Origin: Candidatus Aenigmatarchaeota archaeon
GTDB taxonomy: Archaea; Aenigmatarchaeota; Aenigmatarchaeia; CG10238-14; SCSR01
DNA: 64,000 nt
Assembly: GCA_038999725.1 (NCBI GenBank)
Contig: JAWBWS010000004.1
Location: forward strand, 10,296-74,295
Direction: 5' to 3'
Positions 50,891 through 61,793 of this stretch are shown one piece after another. The notes beneath the pieces were generated by a model. The model made no database searches and was not told the DNA's origin. It was given only the letters and a program-made list of their open reading frames with translations. The first letter of the stretch is position 1, and each line of letters opens with the position of its first letter. A program made the translations under genes and the position numbers.

Positions 50891-50996
50891 GCTGGTGTAG
50901 ATTAGTGGTTAAATCGCGGCGCTCATAGCATCTGTGAGCTTTGATAGAAAGATGAAAGAAACGCCGAGATCGCGGGTTCAAATCCCGCCACCAGCA
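50891..50996 (+). tRNA. tRNA-Met(CAT), elongator type, with a 33-nt intron at 37/38 (50928-50960)
   Basis: Acceptor GCTGGTG/CACCAGC; anticodon stem CGGCG/CGCCG; T arm GCGGG-TTCAAAT-CCCGC; G1 start and no GGG/CCC stem argue against initiator. Confidence 0.88.
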
Positions 50997-54058: not shown

Positions 54059-54990
54059 ATTTTCACTTTAAAAAACAAAAACACTTAAATATACTTATTT
54101 CCATTAATTTATTTGACTCATGAGCTTGGCGTTTAGGCTTTGATAACGTCAAGAGACAAAAGATGAAATGTCCTATTCTGGCTCATGAGAAATTGTCCTG
54201 AAGTGAAAGAGCTTCAGGTAGGTTGATTGGTGAAACCTAGAGGTAGGGCCCGCCAATTCTGGTTGATCCCGCCAGAGGCCACTGCTATCCGGCTTCTACT
54301 AAGCCATGCGAGTCGAGAGGGGAAAGCCCTCGGCGCACTGCTCCGTAATATGCAGTCAACCTACCCTTAGCTGGGGGATAATCTCGGGAAACTGAGGCTA
54401 ATACCCCATAGGTGCTTGGTACTGGAAGGTCCTAGCACCCAAAGCTTCGGCGGCTAAGGATGGGACTGCAGCCTATCAGCTTGTTGTGGAGGTAAAGGCT
54501 CCACAAGGCGATAACGGGTACGGGCTATGGAAGTAGGAGCCCGGAGATGGACTCTGAGACATGAGTCCAGGTCTTACGAGACGCAGCAGGCGAGAAACCT
54601 TTTCAATTCGCTCACGCGAGAAAAGGGAAGCCGGAGTGCCCTTGCTCTGCAAGGGCTTTTGCGGTCTGAAAACGGGACCGCGAATAAGGAGTGGGTAAGA
54701 CGGGTGCCAGCCGCCGCGGTAATACCCGCACTCCAAGTGGTGGCCACGATTATTGGGCCTAAAGCGTCCGTAGCCGGTTTGGTAAGTCCTCAGTGAAATC
54801 CTCTAGCAAACTAGAGGGCTTGCTGGGGATACTGCCAGACTTGAGACTGGGAGGGGGCAGGGGTACTCCCAGGGTAGGGGTGAAATCCTGTAATCCTGGG
54901 GGGACCACCTGTGGCGAAGGCGCCTGCCTGGAACAGGTCTGACGGTGAGGGACGAAAGCTAGGGGAGCGATCGGGATTAGATACCCCGGT

Positions 54991-55071
54991 ACACGAGATT
55001 GGGTATCTTCTGATTCAAGATGAAGAAAAATCCCAAAATTCCAAGCTAGGATTTCCTAACTCGTGCGGGAA
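54991..55071 (+). other. 16S intron 1 (81 nt, after E. coli ~801)
   Basis: Interrupts CCCGGT|AGTCC; BHB helix CCCG/CGGG, stem CACGAG/CTCGTG. Confidence 0.92.
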
Positions 55072-55252
55072 AGTCCTAGCCGTAAACGATGCCCTCTTGG
55101 TGTTGCAAGCTTCTCGGGAGCTTGCAGTGCCGGAGCGTAGGTGTTAAGAGGGCCGCCTGGGGAGTACGCCCGCAAGGGTGAAACTTAAGGGAATTGGCGG
55201 GGGAGCACACAAGGGGTGGGCGTTGCGGTTCAATTGGATTCAACGCCGGGAA

Positions 55253-55862
55253 AGGATAACATCAGTTAAGCTTAAATATCAGATATAGTAAAATTTACTA
55301 GTGGCGATATTATGGGTGTTTACGATGAAGTTTTGAATAATAAAACACTGGCTGCAAAAATATTACTTCCGTTGATAGAGTTTGAGTTTGGTTTAATGGG
55401 AGAAGATTCTCCAACATTAGTTCAAACACCCTCCAACCAAAAACAACTAGAAGTCATATTTAGTATATGCAAAAAATACGAGTGGACCACTTCCAAAAAT
55501 CTCAGAAAAAAGGGCGATAACTTGTATTTCAGACTTAAAAGGAGTGGTTTCAAAGAAATTTATCAGTTGGCCGGACCATTTGCAGATAAGGCAAAAGATG
55601 CTTGGGCCAAATTACTTATAGAACGAATTGGAAAAATTGGAGGATATAGAAAAAAAGAAAAACAAACACAAGAAAAAATATTGGGTATGTTAAATATGAA
55701 AAAGAACAAATGGTGGAAAATTGAAGAAATTTGTTTAAATTTAAGAATACTTCCAAGTACAATTAGAGAAAGTTTAAGAGATTTACAAAAAAGAAGATTA
55801 GTGAAAAGCAAAAAAATCGGAAAGGCTACTTATTGGAAAATTATCTGATGTTATCCCCCGAA
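55253..55862 (+). mobile_element. 16S intron 2 (610 nt, after E. coli ~978), ORF-containing
   Basis: Interrupts CGGGAA|TCTTACC; BHB helix CGGG/CCCG, 12-bp stem GGATAACATCAG/CTGATGTTATCC. Confidence 0.92.
55312..55848 (+). CDS. Intron-encoded protein: divergent single-motif LAGLIDADG-like domain plus C-terminal wHTH
   Basis: ILLPLIEFEFGL helix followed by a LAGLIDADG-like strand/helix pattern; IEEICLNLRILPSTIRESLRDLQKRRLV; TATA-like CTTAAATA at 55271. Confidence 0.6.
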   Translation: MGVYDEVLNNKTLAAKILLPLIEFEFGLMGEDSPTLVQTPSNQKQLEVIFSICKKYEWTTSKNLRKKGDNLYFRLKRSGFKEIYQLAGPFADKAKDAWAKLLIERIGKIGGYRKKEKQTQEKILGMLNMKKNKWWKIEEICLNLRILPSTIRESLRDLQKRRLVKSKKIGKATYWKII

Positions 55863-56081
55863 TCTTACCAGGGCCGACGGCAGGATGAAGGTCAGTCTGA
55901 AGGGCTTACCAGACAAGCCGAGAGGTGGTGCATGGCCATCGTCAGCTCGTACCGTGAGGCGTGCGCTTAAGTGCGTTAACGAGCGAGACCCACATCCCAT
56001 GTTGCTACTGCTTTCTCCGGAAAGCAGGCACTCATGGGAGACCGCTGGCGATAAGCCAGAGGAAGGAGTGGGCGACGGTAG

Positions 56082-56168
56082 ACAGGTAAAAGGCTCATAA
56101 CCGGTTCATGTGAAAAAAGATGAACATGAACAGCGCCCAGAGCCTTACATGTCTTTTACCTGACCGAA
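56082..56168 (+). ncRNA. 16S intron 3 (87 nt, after E. coli ~1197) containing an H/ACA guide RNA candidate
   Basis: BHB helix CGGT/ACCG; internal hairpin with pocket, K-loop and ACA at 56147. Confidence 0.8.
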
Positions 56169-56449
56169 GTCCGTATGCCCCGAATGCCCTGGGCCACACG
56201 CGACGCACAATGCGCGCCACAAAGGGATGCAACCCCGAAAGGGGAAGCGAATCCCCTAAAAGCGCGCCCAGTTCGGATCGAGGGCTGTAACTCGTCCTCG
56301 TGAAGCTGGAATCCCTAGTAAGCGAACGTCATCATCGTTCGCTGAATACGTCCCTGCTCCTTGCACACACTGCCCGTCAAGCCAATCGAGCGGAACTTCC
56401 TCGAGGCTTGTGATGAGCAAGTCGAGTGGAAGTTCTGTGAGAGGGGCTA

Positions 56450-56561
56450 ATCTCGGGAGTCCGAAAAATTAAAGCTAAGATGAAAAAATTGGCTTGACCC
56501 TGAAAATTGATGATGAGTCGGAGGTGAATTGATTTGGCTAGATGGACTCCCTAGAGCCTAA
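56450..56561 (+). ncRNA. 16S intron 4 (112 nt, between A1492 and A1493) containing a box C/D guide RNA candidate
   Basis: BHB helix GGGC/GCCT; boxes AAGATGA, CTGA, ATGATGA, TTGA; two antisense elements matching this 16S. Confidence 0.82.
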
Positions 56562-56749
56562 AGTCGCCACAAGGTAGCCGTACGGGAACGTGCGGCTGGA
56601 TCACCTCCTTAAGATCCATTGCAACCCTACCTCAGGCACTAGAAAACAACCTACCTGAGAAAAAATTTTTAGTGTTTCAAAAATAGCGTAACCTATAGAG
56701 TTTTACCACTATGGATTTTATTAGTCTATTACTTTTAGAGGATAGTTTT

Positions 56750-57262
56750 TTAATAAAACGTCAATTCCTTTGGAGTTTTATAAAGTCTTGCTATCAATGC
56801 TCCACGTATATGGATTAATACACAATTTGAATCAAGGCTATATCCATCACTATCTTCTCTATCTTCTCGCGGGGCTTTGAAATTACAATATAAAAACAAA
56901 GACTCTTTATGTTTTTCATAAAACTCACTGTTCTTCATAGACATACGTTTAGCTATATCTTCATAATATTTTTCTGGAGCATGAACGGGTAACTCGAGGA
57001 TTTCTACATCATTTGTGGAATTTTTTGCAGTATAGATTTTTATAGAACCATCTTCTTTATATTTGATAACCACTGAACCATATTTACCTTCAGCAGGATT
57101 AAAGCGTGAAACGAGTAAACTACCAATGTCCATCGGTATTAAATTCCCTGCTGTTTCATCAAGAATGTATAACACAATGTCCTTTCTACCGGTTCTGTAA
57201 GTTTTACCCTTTTCTAAATTAAACACCCTTTCTTCTTCCCCTATAAACCATCTCAAGCTCAT
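56750..57262 (-). CDS. Hypothetical protein, possible FHA-like domain
   Basis: TGRKD...LVSR...NSTN motifs in FHA order. Confidence 0.5.
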   Translation of the reverse strand: MSLRWFIGEEERVFNLEKGKTYRTGRKDIVLYILDETAGNLIPMDIGSLLVSRFNPAEGKYGSVVIKYKEDGSIKIYTAKNSTNDVEILELPVHAPEKYYEDIAKRMSMKNSEFYEKHKESLFLYCNFKAPREDREDSDGYSLDSNCVLIHIRGALIARLYKTPKELTFY

Positions 57263-57356
57263 GTTAATTACTTATCAGTAGTAAATAATTTTTTTTCCGG
57301 TAGTGAAAGATATATTTTAAAGTATATAATTCCGAAAAGAGAGCTTATTTAAAGAA

Positions 57357-59375
57357 TTAAGGAAACAGGTTATATGTGAGTATTAATGAAGAAAAAACTG
57401 AAGCGGTTAAAGACATAACTGTTATCATTGTATTTAAACTTGGTCCTGCAGTATCTTTAAAAGGATCCCCAACCGTGTCACCAACTACGGCAGCCTTATG
57501 GGCTTCTGAGCCTTTACCACCAAATGCCCCTTCTTCTATTAGCTTCTTTGCATTATCCCATGTTCCTCCTGAATTTGCCATGAATAACGCAAAAATTATT
57601 CCCGTCAATATACTAGCAGCAAGGAAGCCTGCCAAAGCTTCTTTACCTAAAAGAAAACCGACAAGCAAAGGAGCAATTATTGCTAGCAAGCATGGAAACA
57701 TGAGCTCCTTCAAGGCACCTTTTGTAGCTATATCAACACATTTAGCATAGTCTGGTTTTGCTTTTCCTTCTATTAATCCAGGTATTTCCCTGAATTGCCT
57801 TCTTATTTCTTCAATCATCCTGAAGGCATTTCTCCCCACTGCTAAAATCAACAAAGCCGAAATCACTGGTGGGATGATGCCACCAATAAAAATCCCAACT
57901 ATCACTTTAGGCTCCATTAAGTTTATGGAGAATAGGCCACTTAAAGGATCTTTCCTTATCTCAACAACTTCAGCATAAGCTCCGAGTAAAGCTAAAACAG
58001 TTAGAGCAGCTGCACCAATTGCGAAACCTTTTGTTATGGCTTTTGTTGTGTTGCCTAGAGCATCAAGCCTATCAGTAATTTTTAAAGCTTTTTTTCCAAC
58101 ACCAGCTTGTTCTCCGATTCCCTTAGCATTATCAACTATAGGACCATAAGCGTCAGAAGAGATTATCATCCCTACTATTGAAAGCATGCCAACGGCTGAA
58201 ATTGCTATCCCATAGAAGTTGTTAACATCAAAAGCTCCTGCAAGATGCCAGGCAGCAAGCATTGCTATACAAATTCCTATTATCGATGGTACAATACTCA
58301 ATATACCATAAGAAAAGCCAGATAGGATGTTTGTGGCCGCTCCTGTTTTTGCTGCTTCTGCCGTTTTTTTTACTGGAGCTTTATCAATTGAAGTGTAATA
58401 GTCTGTGGTTATTCCTATGACCACACCTGCAATCAAACCTGCTAGAGTTGGTAAAAACACACCATAGCCTTGAACTCCAAGGTTAAGAAGCTGAATGATT
58501 AAAAAAGTTAAAATTGCAAAAATAAAGCAAGTTGAAAAAGTTCCGAGATTTAAAGCCATGTTGGGATTTTTCCTTTTCGTAAAATTGACAAAAATTACGC
58601 CAAGTATGGAAGCAAAAATTCCCACAGCTGCTATAAGCAAAGGTAAGAAAACAAAGGTTGGAGAAATGACCTTCCCTATTATCATAGCAGCTATTATACT
58701 TGCTATGTAAGAGTCTATTAAATCAGCACCCATACCGGCAACATCACCAACATTATCACCAACATTATCAGCAATAACAGCAGGATTTCTTGGATCATCT
58801 TCAGGAATTCCCATCTCAACTTTTCCAACCAAATCAGCACCTATGTCTGCTGTTTTCGTGTAGATGCCACCTCCAGCTTTTGCAAATAAAGCCAGAGCAC
58901 TTGCACCAAAGCTGAAGCCCAAAACAATCTCAGGGTCTTGGTAAATGTGGAATAAAATGGCAATTCCAATCAAGGCTATACCAACTATCATCAAGCCCAT
59001 AATAGCTCCACCACAAAAACCGATTGAAAAAGCTTGAGCTAAGCTTTTCTTTGCAGCGTTGGTTACCCTAACATTTGTTTTGACCGCGGCAAGCATCCCA
59101 AAATAGCTTGCTACTGCTGTTGAGATGGAACCGAGCAAGTAAGCTAGAGCTATATGTGGGTTTAAAAAGAGGAAAATTAGAAAAGTCATGATGGCGACAA
59201 AAATTGCTAGGTATAAGTTTTGTCTTTTCAAGTAAGCTTTTGCCCCAATTTTTATCGCTTCAGAAATTTCTTCCATTTTCCTTGTTCCAGGGCTTTGTTT
59301 GCTCACGTGAAGATATAAGTAGAAAGCTGTGAAGATTGAAAGCAAACCAGCAATTATTGGAATTATTTCAAACAT
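57357..59375 (-). CDS. hppA: Membrane pyrophosphatase, predicted K+-independent H+-translocating
   Basis: [35 protein letters not shown] (Lys at the K+-dependence determinant). Confidence 0.95.
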
Positions 59376-59442
59376 CAAGTCACTAATTAAAAATTATTAG
59401 AGGAGGATAATTTAAAGGTTATAAGGCTCAAATACTAATAGT

Positions 59443-59514
59443 GGGCCGGTAGATCAATGGTAGATCGCCTCGCTTGCAACGAGGAGGCTCCGGGTTCGAA
59501 TCCCGGCCGGTCCA
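59443..59514 (+). tRNA. tRNA-Ala(TGC), intronless
   Basis: GGGCCGG/CCGGTCC with G3:U70; CCTCG-CTTGCAA-CGAGG. Confidence 0.96.
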
Positions 59515-59589
59515 CATGAAGAAAAAGAGAGCGACAATATAGTAGATTAAACAAGGAGATTGTTTATGTATGAATCAGAGGAGGGGCAA

Positions 59590-60483
59590 ATGGCTAATGA
59601 GATTAAACGACGCGCTCAAAAAACAAATAATGAGAAGGAGGAATTTATGGACCCGGAAAAATGTGAGAACATTAATTCTCTTAGGGAGAATGCGTGAATG
59701 GGGAAGTTTTTATGCTGTCAAGATTGTCCTCGGCATCCCCTTCGAGGTAATCCTGTATTTGCTGAAGGTTGCTCACTACATCAAACAGAATCTCCTCTAA
59801 TCCTTTTTGTTTCTCAAGACCCCGCAAGTCCCAAAAGGAGTGGTATTATTGGTTGCTCGGCAGATGGAAGAGTTTGTCCATGGTGCCACACGGATTTTAG
59901 TGCAAATAATTTTCGTGAAAAACTTTTCCCTTTAATAAAAAAGAGACTTCCTGGGATAGAGTGGATGGGTGTTATCGGATTTATTGTATCAATGCTGTTT
60001 TACATGGCCCGAGATAATATGCCACCTCCAACTAGAGCTGTCTGCTAGACTTATATTCTAAAAGCATATGTTCGTTTACTTAAGCCTAAGATTGTAATGG
60101 GGCTTGGAATAAAAGCAAGATACTCCCTAGCGCTTGCTTTTGGTATTCAAAACTTTGAAAAAGCATCTTATCCAGTAATTCGTGAAGGTATAGCGTTTTG
60201 GTGGACTTACCATCAAGCTCAAAGGAGCTTTCTCAAAAAACATTATGAAATTGAGACAAGATTTAAAATAATTGCGGAGTTTTTAAAAGACCAACTAGAG
60301 GGGTGTGAAAGGGTAAAGAGGGAATACAAACTCAGAAAATTGGAATTTGAGCCAGAAATTCTAATTGTGAGAGAATATTACGACTTAAGATTGCCGAAAA
60401 TTTGGTACTTCATAAATCGATTTTTCTTCTTCTTTGTCATAAATATGGGGAAACTTCATTTACATCTTTCTCCAAAGCCCTAG
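59590..60483 (+). pseudogene. Uracil-DNA glycosylase superfamily pseudogene
   Basis: CQDCP, ILFVSQDP, IYCINAVLHGP (other frame), PPT..VC*, LLKPKIVMGLG and WTYH, split by frameshifts and stops. Confidence 0.7.
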
Positions 60484-60579
60484 CAATTCTCTTTGCCAAA
60501 TTATTCGGTTTTCTCTCTTGAGCTTCTCTATAATCAGTTGATTATCCCTCTTATTGATTCTGACGTCTCTCCTGTTTTG

Positions 60580-61252
60580 AAAGTTTTTTTATTTGAGAAT
60601 TGTTTCTATCTCATCAATTTTTTTAATTCGGAAATTTGGCTTACATTCCCTACGCCATGCCAATTTAAGTAGTCCATCAAACTCAACTTTCACGGTTGTT
60701 ATACTCTCACATAATTTATTTCATTAATCTGCGAAGGTTTATCGTTTATGAATATTATTTCTTCCGGGAAGCCGTGTATTTTTTCATAATCAATTTTATA
60801 CCTTCTAATCGATCCTTTACATCTTCGCCAGTAATAAAAATATCATCAAAATAATCAAGAAATCCATTTTTCTTGATTCTATATCTTTTCATGCTTGGAA
60901 TTCCATCATTTCCTGAGATTATTATTAAAATTAGTCCCTTCTTTCTTAACGACTCTAGAATACTTTTTGAGTTAATACTATAGATTGTTGTATCCTCAAG
61001 AAAATCTTAAGCATCTCATCTAATCTTTCCTCGGTTACGGATATCCCAAATTCTCCAATCATAATTTCCTAGCGCGTCTTGTTCGTCTTCATAGGCCAAC
61101 GCCTTTTGAATAAACTTGTCCTTCACATCATTTTTCAACCCAAGATGATGAGCAATGAAGTCATACAGGGAAGGTAAACAAGCGTAACTATCCACTAAAA
61201 CACCATCAAAATCAAAAATACAAATTCTATATTTATTTTTCTTAAGACTCAT
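60580..61252 (-). pseudogene. HAD hydrolase pseudogene
   Basis: FDFDGVLVDS in the first frame; LESLRKKGLILIIISGND...YFDDIFITGED...IIFINDKP in a downstream frame without a start. Confidence 0.75.
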
Positions 61253-61508
61253 TTTTACACCCTTTATTTACCCTTAAATGAAAATACACTTTTATCTGGT
61301 TGTAAGAAAACAAGGGATTAACAAACCTCCTATAATAAGTTGCGAAAGAGATGCTATGCCTAGAGTCATTATAAAGAAAGACGTGAGCATCAAACCGAAA
61401 TCTAATAAATCTAATAATAGCATAAATATCCTTTATTTATTGATAGTTTAAAAGATAGTTTAAAATATTCTTCTGTTTTTCTTTTGACTAACTTAATAAT
61501 TCGAAATC

Positions 61509-61516
61509 TTTATAAA
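61509..61516 (+). promoter_or_regulatory. TATA box candidate for an independent 23S transcript
   Basis: TTTATAAA after purine-rich CGAAA, about 25 nt before the structured leader. Confidence 0.55.
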
Positions 61517-61693
61517 TACAAAATACAACTTATTTATTTGCCGGTGTCTGTATGTTTGCTTAGCTTAAGCATCGGCCTTCTTTATTTAGCGATGAGCTTG
61601 TTTTTCTTCTGATAAAAGATGAAGACGTGGACACCTTGCGAGCAATTCAACAGAATGCAACTCCTTATTAAAGAATAAGGGGTGAAGAGTGGA

Positions 61694-61754
61694 GGTTGAT
61701 GATAACATTTATTCGCCTGAAAAAAGATGAAGAGCGAACTGTCTATTTGAAACC
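61694..61754 (+). ncRNA. Box C/D sRNA candidate in the 23S leader
   Basis: GGTT/AACC terminal stem; TGATGA...CTGA...AGATGA...TTGA. Confidence 0.65.
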
Positions 61755-61793
61755 ATAAGATGACACTACCACAGGATCAAGGAGGTCACTAAG

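Follow-up and report, generated by a model that had tools for sequence, protein, structure and literature searches.

We describe a bulge-helix-bulge intron in the 16S rRNA gene of a Candidatus Aenigmatarchaeota archaeon whose body, as read from its sequence, is a single-hairpin archaeal box H/ACA guide RNA in a new genomic setting. The intron is probably a K-loop box H/ACA guide for one uridine, U55224, of its own host 16S rRNA. This kind of RNA and this target are known already; what is new is the placing of the guide inside a bulge-helix-bulge intron of the targeted rRNA. Positions are those of the window, the whole stretch of 64,000 nucleotides that was analysed.

The 16S rRNA gene and its intron

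We begin with the gene itself. The window comes from contig C4 of a genome (G000) of 729,769 bp in 9 contigs, with a completeness of 93%. Rfam places the 16S rRNA at 54256-56609 and the 23S rRNA from 61793 onward, where it is cut by the contig end. The 16S gene has a length of about 2.35 kb because four insertions lie within it. One of these, 56082-56168, is exactly an insertion of 87 nt relative to the Rfam archaeal SSU model, and in many intron-less 16S genes of relatives (e.g., G007 and G014) the exons abut at exactly 56081|56169. Both observations bear out the first-pass annotation, which had called this segment a 16S intron.

Using the intron with 62 nt of exon on each side as the query against 100 relatives, we obtain matches in 59 genomes, counting G000. 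The match runs across the intron in 7 genomes (8 loci, G000 included), and the remaining 52 genomes match in the exon parts only. The other copies (G005:C3, G002, G003, G055, G023, G005:C29 and G013) are 97-79% identical and occupy the same 16S site, so that the survey of related genomes that had been suggested as a check now adds 7 copies from 6 of them.

A fold of the intron together with its exon flanks (-38.8 kcal/mol, z = -4.7) has the exon CGGT paired with the intron ACCG in a 4-bp helix. The 3' splice-site side is a 2x2 internal loop in the minimum-free-energy fold, and a 3-nt bulge AAG is also possible there. Because of the exon junction seen in the intron-less relatives, we place the splice cuts after 56081 and after 56168; cutting after the second bulge base on both sides gives exactly this junction. 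The splice-site helix is kept in other copies by G-U pairs (3' strand GCUG or GCCG), and the closing helix (helix 1) has 8 pairs with 100% of the alignment cells paired and changes on both sides in 3 pairs. The genome encodes both EndA (94.1 bits) and RtcB (548.5 bits).

By our count, the insertion site is at about E. coli 1195-1197. Jay and Inskeep give 13 archaeal 16S intron loci (374, 548, 722, 781, 803, 901, 907/908, 919, 978, 1093, 1205, 1213 and 1391), and the present site is not among them (PMC4496867). This agrees with the earlier remark that 1197 is not known to be a common place for an archaeal intron.

Reads across the 56081|56169 junction are present in three hot-spring metatranscriptomes (93, 190 and 1242 reads), mostly with variants such as 56186 G>C. 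Since most of them carry the variants of other organisms, these reads probably come from intron-less relatives and bear neither way on splicing or expression in this organism. In the same three metatranscriptomes the depth over 56087-56154 is zero, and the sampled words are present at no more than 45% in any run.

Fold and box H/ACA anatomy

The minimum-free-energy fold of the intron is the H/ACA structure (-26.5 kcal/mol, z = -4.5; none of 200 shuffles is as stable), and all 8 intron copies, each folded alone, fold alike. The stems, pocket strands, K-loop, ACA and 16S pairing strings that the first-pass annotation had named are all present, at the positions of Table 1.

Table 1. Positions in the window of the intron, its splice sites, the H/ACA elements and the predicted 16S target
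Feature	Position	Strand	Observation
Predicted target TGGGCGT-(U55224 G55225)-CGGTT	55217..55230	+	U55224 = predicted pseudouridine
Bulge-helix-bulge intron with H/ACA motif	56082..56168	+	Rfam insertion, junction in relatives, fold
5' splice site: helix CGGT 56076-79, bulge AGA 56080-82	56076..56082	+	exon-flank fold
Intron closing helix, 5' strand	56083..56090	+	pairs with 56155-56162
H/ACA lower stem, 5' strand AAGGCTC	56090..56096	+	6/6 counted pairs change on both sides
Pocket 5' guide strand ATAACCG	56097..56103	+	ACCG invariant 11/11; pairs with 16S 55226-30
Upper stem, 5' strand GTTCATGT, 8 nt	56104..56111	+	7/8 pairs change on both sides
K-loop GA-AAAAAGAT-GA: GA 56112-13, loop, AUGA 56120-23	56112..56123	+	G and AUGA invariant 11/11
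Upper stem, 3' strand ACATGAAC	56124..56131	+	covariation
Pocket 3' guide strand AGCGCCCA	56132..56139	+	pairs with 16S 55217-23
Lower stem, 3' strand GAGCCTT	56140..56146	+	fold and covariation
ACA (ANA) box, 15 nt past the upper stem	56147..56149	+	both A's invariant
Intron closing helix, 3' strand	56155..56162	+	fold and covariation
3' splice site: helix ACCG 56163-66, bulge AAG 56167-69	56163..56169	+	exon-flank fold

The upper stem of 8 bp and the tandem G·A pairs together make 10 layers, which are combined with a 7-bp lower stem and an 8-nt 3' strand; this 10/8/7 fold is one of the models listed in PMC4652768. The tandem sheared G·A pairs of the K-loop form a predicted L7Ae-binding motif. 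Base 56090 can pair either in the closing helix or in the lower stem.

Archaeal H/ACA RNAs contain a K-turn or K-loop, and their ANA box, mostly ACA, is 14-15 nt away from the target (Muller et al., PMC2377435). In productive guides, the stack that runs from the pair closing the pocket through the second G·A pair counts exactly 10 layers (Toffano-Nioche et al., PMC4652768). A script of these rules (PMC4652768, PMC2377435) was applied to 15 sequences, namely the 8 intron copies, 6 free copies that are described below, and a Thermococci Pab160 RNA. It passes 14 of them: 7/8 intron copies, 6/6 free copies and the Thermococci Pab160. The copy of G002 fails solely by one mismatch in the lower stem, which the script requires to be perfect. 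Each of the 14 passing sequences has 2 G·A pairs and 8 layers, of which 7 or 8 are standard pairs, and an ANA box at a distance of 14 or 15 nt (15 nt in G000); a GA...GA loop on an 8-layer stem is seen in 14 of the 15 sequences scored. The archaeal H/ACA geometry read into this hairpin at first pass is therefore that of the published 10-layer GA stem with ANA at 14-15 nt (PMC4652768, PMC2377435). The Rfam H/ACA families give no match for 55860-56620 at E≤10.

The predicted target

The pocket pairs with the 16S rRNA through 7+5 pairs around the unpaired U55224-G55225. This is the sole site with at least 9 pairs in the 16S and the assembled part of the 23S of G000, and the equivalent of U55224 is the top site in the full 16S and 23S operons of G002, G055 and G005:C29 (the G023 contig is without the target region and is left out of this comparison). 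Shuffled pocket strands reach the observed complementarity to rRNA in 8 of 2000 trials for G000 and 11 of 2000 for G013. The target sequence is identical in all 7 family f1 loci where it is assembled, and the 16S target-site sequence is identical in the public Candidatus Aenigmatarchaeota records.

A guide for the same position is known from other archaea. At the aligned place, the 16S rRNA of two Thermococci genomes reads GGAGCG-T-G-CGGTTT. A pattern for a complementary pocket has a single RNA match in one such genome, and the reversed control has none. The matched RNA is Rfam Pab160 (62.3 bits), and it faces the uridine that is aligned with U55224. Pab160/Pf9 guides 16S pseudouridine 922 in P. 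abyssi, as found by CMCT mapping, with strong activity in vitro (PMC2377435); the P. furiosus equivalent is U910, within nts 905-917 (PMC2377435, PMC2094053). The Thermococci target uridine is 905 nt from the Rfam start and 31 nt after a UU doublet, which fits the numbering of P. abyssi, where 922 follows 891/892 by the same distance.

Placed by its distance from the hypermodified U that lies 16 nt downstream, the equivalent of U55224 would presumably be pseudouridine 1232 of vertebrate 18S rRNA. Vertebrate 18S rRNA does carry a pseudouridine 1232 (PMC6984369, PMC4914119). The modification is not universal, since none of the 8 pseudouridines mapped in the 16S rRNA of Sulfolobus islandicus is close to this position (PMC11077068, Table 1). 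The proteins of P. furiosus are active with guides of foreign origin (PMC11077068). The uridine proposed in the first-pass annotation, U55224 (E. coli ~950), stands as the predicted target: it is the top rRNA site, its homologue is faced by Pab160/Pf9, and guide and target covary as set out below.

Conservation and covariation

For covariation we use a MAFFT alignment of the 8 introns with 22 pairs. In this set 97.7% of the cells are paired and 16 of the 22 pairs have changed on both sides, values that 0 of 500 shuffles reach; slid controls, with the partners moved by 1-3 columns, have only 22-46% paired. With 3 free copies added, in an alignment that is fitted to the model, the values are 98.2% and 17 of 22 pairs. 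The single-stranded parts are also kept. The pocket ACCG (columns A11 C12 C13 G14), the G (G23) and AUGA (A31 T32 G33 A34) of the K-loop and A-N-A (A58, A60) are invariant in 11/11 homologues (8 intron and 3 free). The 3' pocket strand has an equally invariant first A and CG, and its core is CGCC in all 8 intron copies. These motifs stay invariant in genomes where the flank-plus-intron identity to the window is only 79-83%.

Conservation of the ACA and the pocket in homologous introns was one of the points on which the first-pass annotation had staked its reading. The ACA itself is not kept, reading AAA or ATA in 4 of the 8 intron copies, whereas A-N-A and the pocket cores are kept. ANA is the archaeal consensus box (PMC2377435).

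Could the hairpin be a chance likeness, that is, a decaying selfish intron with an H/ACA-like fold by accident? A strict K-loop H/ACA descriptor has a single match in the whole 730-kb genome, which is this intron, but the same descriptor by itself gives a mean of 0.3 matches per shuffled genome (30 shuffles), and a relaxed descriptor gives 67 matches vs 18-35 in 5 shuffles, mostly noise. The descriptor counts would allow an accident; the 16 compensatory pairs out of 22, the single-strand motifs that stay invariant at only 79-83% identity and the orthologues outside introns effectively refute it.

An alternative with somewhat more substance is that the hairpin serves the intron only structurally, its K-loop binding L7Ae and helping to present the bulge-helix-bulge for splicing, with the pocket kept for reasons other than guiding. 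Three observations would suit such a role: the closing helix is stacked on the lower stem, base 56090 has a possible partner in each of these two helices, and the pocket shares its ACCG with the 3' strand of the splice-site helix. The splice-helix ACCG varies (GCUG, GCCG), however, while the pocket ACCG is constant. The same hairpin and pocket also occur as free intergenic genes without a splice motif, and in genus g34 the pocket changes along with the target. We therefore regard a purely structural hairpin as highly improbable. Pairing of the pocket ACCG in place of the splice-helix ACCG was considered separately and is out, since only the splice-helix copy varies.

Orthologues outside introns

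A covariance model of the intron, searched against 69 family genomes, finds the 8 intron copies and 3 intergenic hairpins (G014, G048 and G059). The latter have the pocket strands GAACCG and AACGCC or AGCGC, a K-loop, and ACA at 15 nt. Each lies between genes, downstream of an AT-rich promoter-like sequence and without a splice motif, and is directly followed by C/D sRNAs whose guides match the 16S rRNA over 10-11 nt. G014 has a 16S without the intron and the free-standing gene, and within genus g11 the intron form alone is found in G055 and the free form alone in G048 and G059. This distribution of free and intron forms within one genus hints that guide genes may pass from sRNA clusters to introns of the rRNA or the other way.

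A broadened model finds 3 more free H/ACA genes, of family f2, in 117 genomes of the order; a model search of 151 genomes of the class gives no match outside family f1. In genus g34, of a second family, the 16S target reads GGGTGG-T-G-CGGTT. Two syntenic g34 guides have the 3' strands AUCACG and CCACCA instead of A-N-CGCC, and the same U is their top site. A G-C pair between guide and target in f1 is replaced by an A-U pair in g34, and at the level of sequence the 3' strand of the g34 guide is changed to match its changed 16S target.

The pattern of either an intron or a free gene is not strict. Four genomes of the same genus (G007, G004, G001 and G006) have no match to model R2 at E≤1. G007, at 88% completeness, has the 16S site without the intron as well, so that neither form is present there and the strict pattern fails for it; in G007 the guide may be dispensable or replaced.

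Some further hits and loci were noted in these searches. A model R2 match in the genome of the window (G000:C1:137075-137155, 23.4 bits) is taken as a false positive, since it lies in an open coding-looking stretch and has no K-loop GA pairs. A weak intron-model match at G020:C54:381-463 (L057:381-463, 24.5 bits) has AACGCCAGAGG and ACA and no clear K-loop GA pairs, and may be a decayed copy or noise. The sRNA clusters of the relatives (L051:1501-1640, L052:1501-1650, and L055 and L056 on the minus strand at 1440-1640) consist of one H/ACA hairpin followed by 1-2 C/D sRNAs with 16S-complementary guides; none of these sRNAs is at the Rfam gathering score. In G048, which has the free guide, the 16S gene (L015, minus strand) has a different insertion of ~35 nt beside the same site, at ~1470 of the reverse complement.

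Proposed mechanism

The genome encodes Cbf5 with the DKCLD, TruB_N, TruB_C_2 and PUA domains, as well as Nop10 and L7Ae; Gar1 (PF04410) is not found in this 93%-complete genome. With these proteins we infer the following course. During transcription of the pre-16S rRNA, L7Ae would bind the K-loop, and Cbf5-Nop10 would bind the lower stem and, via the PUA domain of Cbf5, the ANA box. The pocket strands would then pair with 16S 55217-23 and 55226-30, leaving U55224-G55225 unpaired in the active site of Cbf5, where U55224 would be isomerised to pseudouridine. The modification may take place in cis, with guide and target still on one nascent transcript, or in trans, once EndA has excised the intron and RtcB has ligated it; the ligated intron would probably be circular.

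A different role for the same particle has to be weighed here. The intron RNP may pair with 16S 55217-30 as a chaperone of folding or processing without modifying U55224, or it may modify U55223. The 3' guide duplex, the more important of the two (PMC2377435), has just 4-5 bp in 5 of the 8 intron copies, and in 4 copies (G002, G055, G023 and G005:C29) a U stands opposite U55223, beside the target. Such a mismatch leaves U55223, U55224 and G55225 unpaired, and a 5'-UNN-3' arrangement can function (PMC2377435), so that U55223 may be a second or alternative target. The lack of a Gar1 match points the same way. Two unpaired bases, ANA at 14-15 nt and a 10-layer GA stem, on the other hand, are the geometry of a productive, modifying guide (PMC4652768); in Pyrococcus, pseudouridine formation at the homologous U under the guidance of Pab160 is proven (PMC2377435), and Cbf5 has its full set of domains. 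We consider a chaperone, or a guide for U55223, unlikely, and keep to pseudouridylation of U55224 as the preferred reading.

Other insertions and the neighbourhood

The 16S gene has three insertions besides the H/ACA intron. The first (~54993-55073, ~81 nt), at E. coli ~802, contains CTGA-TTCAA-GATGAAG, resembling a D'/C' K-loop; the 8 nt before this part are complementary to the upstream exon 54979-86, and the insertion is also in G007. The second (55253-55855, ~603 nt), which we place at E. coli ~978, has a 178-aa ORF (55312-55848) and is missing from G007. This ORF has no match to a homing-endonuclease family, and its C-terminal part has sub-threshold winged-helix matches only.

The fourth, 56451-56562 in helix 44, has the look of a C/D box sRNA, with a weak snoPyro_CD match (20.4 bits, E 0.12) and the boxes AGATGAA, CTGA, TGATGA and TTGA. 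Its guide ahead of CTGA has an 11-nt match to 16S 56376-86 (decoding-site strand), and the guide ahead of TTGA matches 16S 56601-08 (3' end). G005:C3, G002 and G007 retain these boxes and guides; G014 has no such insertion.

The 16S of G007 (L013, minus strand), without the second insertion and the H/ACA intron, has other insertions of ~160, 358, 46 and 56 nt elsewhere. Because the insertions of G007 differ in this way, the intron content of the 16S gene turns over fast within the genus.

In the window, the 16S-23S gap (56610-61792) is 5.2 kb long, with a tRNA-Ala at 59443-59515 and room for protein genes. Rfam also reports a tRNA of 106 nt at 50891-50996 that ARAGORN does not report and that probably contains an intron. 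In two Thermococci genomes, the Pab19 H/ACA sRNA (RF02794) lies ~140 nt upstream of the 16S on the same strand (L067:166-269, L085:1666-1768).

Implications

In the literature consulted, archaeal H/ACA guides are otherwise known as free-standing genes. A search of the openly licensed literature and bioRxiv finds no published guide encoded in an archaeal rRNA intron; subscription journals, where such a report may exist, lie outside this scope. The common view of archaeal rRNA introns is that they are mobile, functionless passengers (PMC4496867), and a guide inside the rRNA that it modifies would give such an intron a cellular job. The guide would be supplied without a promoter of its own and in fixed proportion to its substrate, an attractive arrangement for a genome of 0.73 Mb. 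It would also share the nascent transcript with its target, as a simple archaeal counterpart of the eukaryotic intronic snoRNAs. A conserved small-subunit pseudouridine would in this way be tied to a DPANN lineage for which no cultured model exists, with Pyrococcus 922 at the same position.

We put forward as a tentative idea, on which we lean slightly to the side of doubt, that rRNA introns of the Aenigmatarchaeota have been co-opted as carriers of guides for the host rRNA, the H/ACA intron and the C/D-like insertion at 56451-56562 being examples, with one guide for one rRNA in cis. If rRNA introns carry guides, they would be a prokaryotic parallel to intron-encoded snoRNAs and a possible model for their origin.

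Comparison with known systems

The closest known RNA is Pab160/Pf9 of Pyrococcus (Rfam RF02796), which, like the intron RNA, is a single-hairpin archaeal H/ACA guide. The 5' guides are alike (AAACCG in Pab160, A/G-AACCG in the intron family), and Pab160 also has one unpaired base atop the 3' strand, a 10-layer GA stem and ACA at 14 nt. It faces the homologous uridine, P. abyssi 922 or P. furiosus 910 (PMC2377435, PMC2094053). The two differ in the kink motif, which is a K-turn with a small apical stem in Pab160 and a K-loop in the intron RNA; in the 3' guide (CGCTC vs A-N-CGCC), in step with their differing targets; and in that Pab160 is a free-standing gene whereas the intron RNA lies inside its own target gene. 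Because Rfam gives no match at E≤10, we class the intron RNA as a counterpart in function to Pab160 and not as a member of RF02796.

Guides inside archaeal introns are known from tRNA genes. The pre-tRNA-Trp intron of Euryarchaeota contains a box C/D sRNA that is aimed at its own host transcript. A C/D-like RNA is described in the tRNA-Met intron of Nanoarchaeum equitans (PMC3491384). Both have, as here, a guide in a bulge-helix-bulge intron; they are C/D RNAs for 2'-O-methylation in tRNA introns, whereas the present one is an H/ACA RNA for predicted pseudouridylation in an rRNA intron.

The 16S introns of the Thermoproteales resemble the present intron in being of the bulge-helix-bulge type, in conserved parts of the 16S, with a patchy distribution, and in that some are short hairpins without an ORF (PMC4496867). 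Those introns are regarded as mobile elements that leave the host unaffected, and they are not credited with any guiding role (PMC4496867).

In eukaryotes, splicing releases H/ACA snoRNAs from introns (PMC7991803), and a guide released in this manner has no need of its own promoter (PMC7991803). There the guides reside in spliceosomal introns of genes transcribed by RNA polymerase II and act on an RNA other than their host, whereas the present guide resides in the very rRNA that is its target, within an intron of the archaeal, protein-spliced type.
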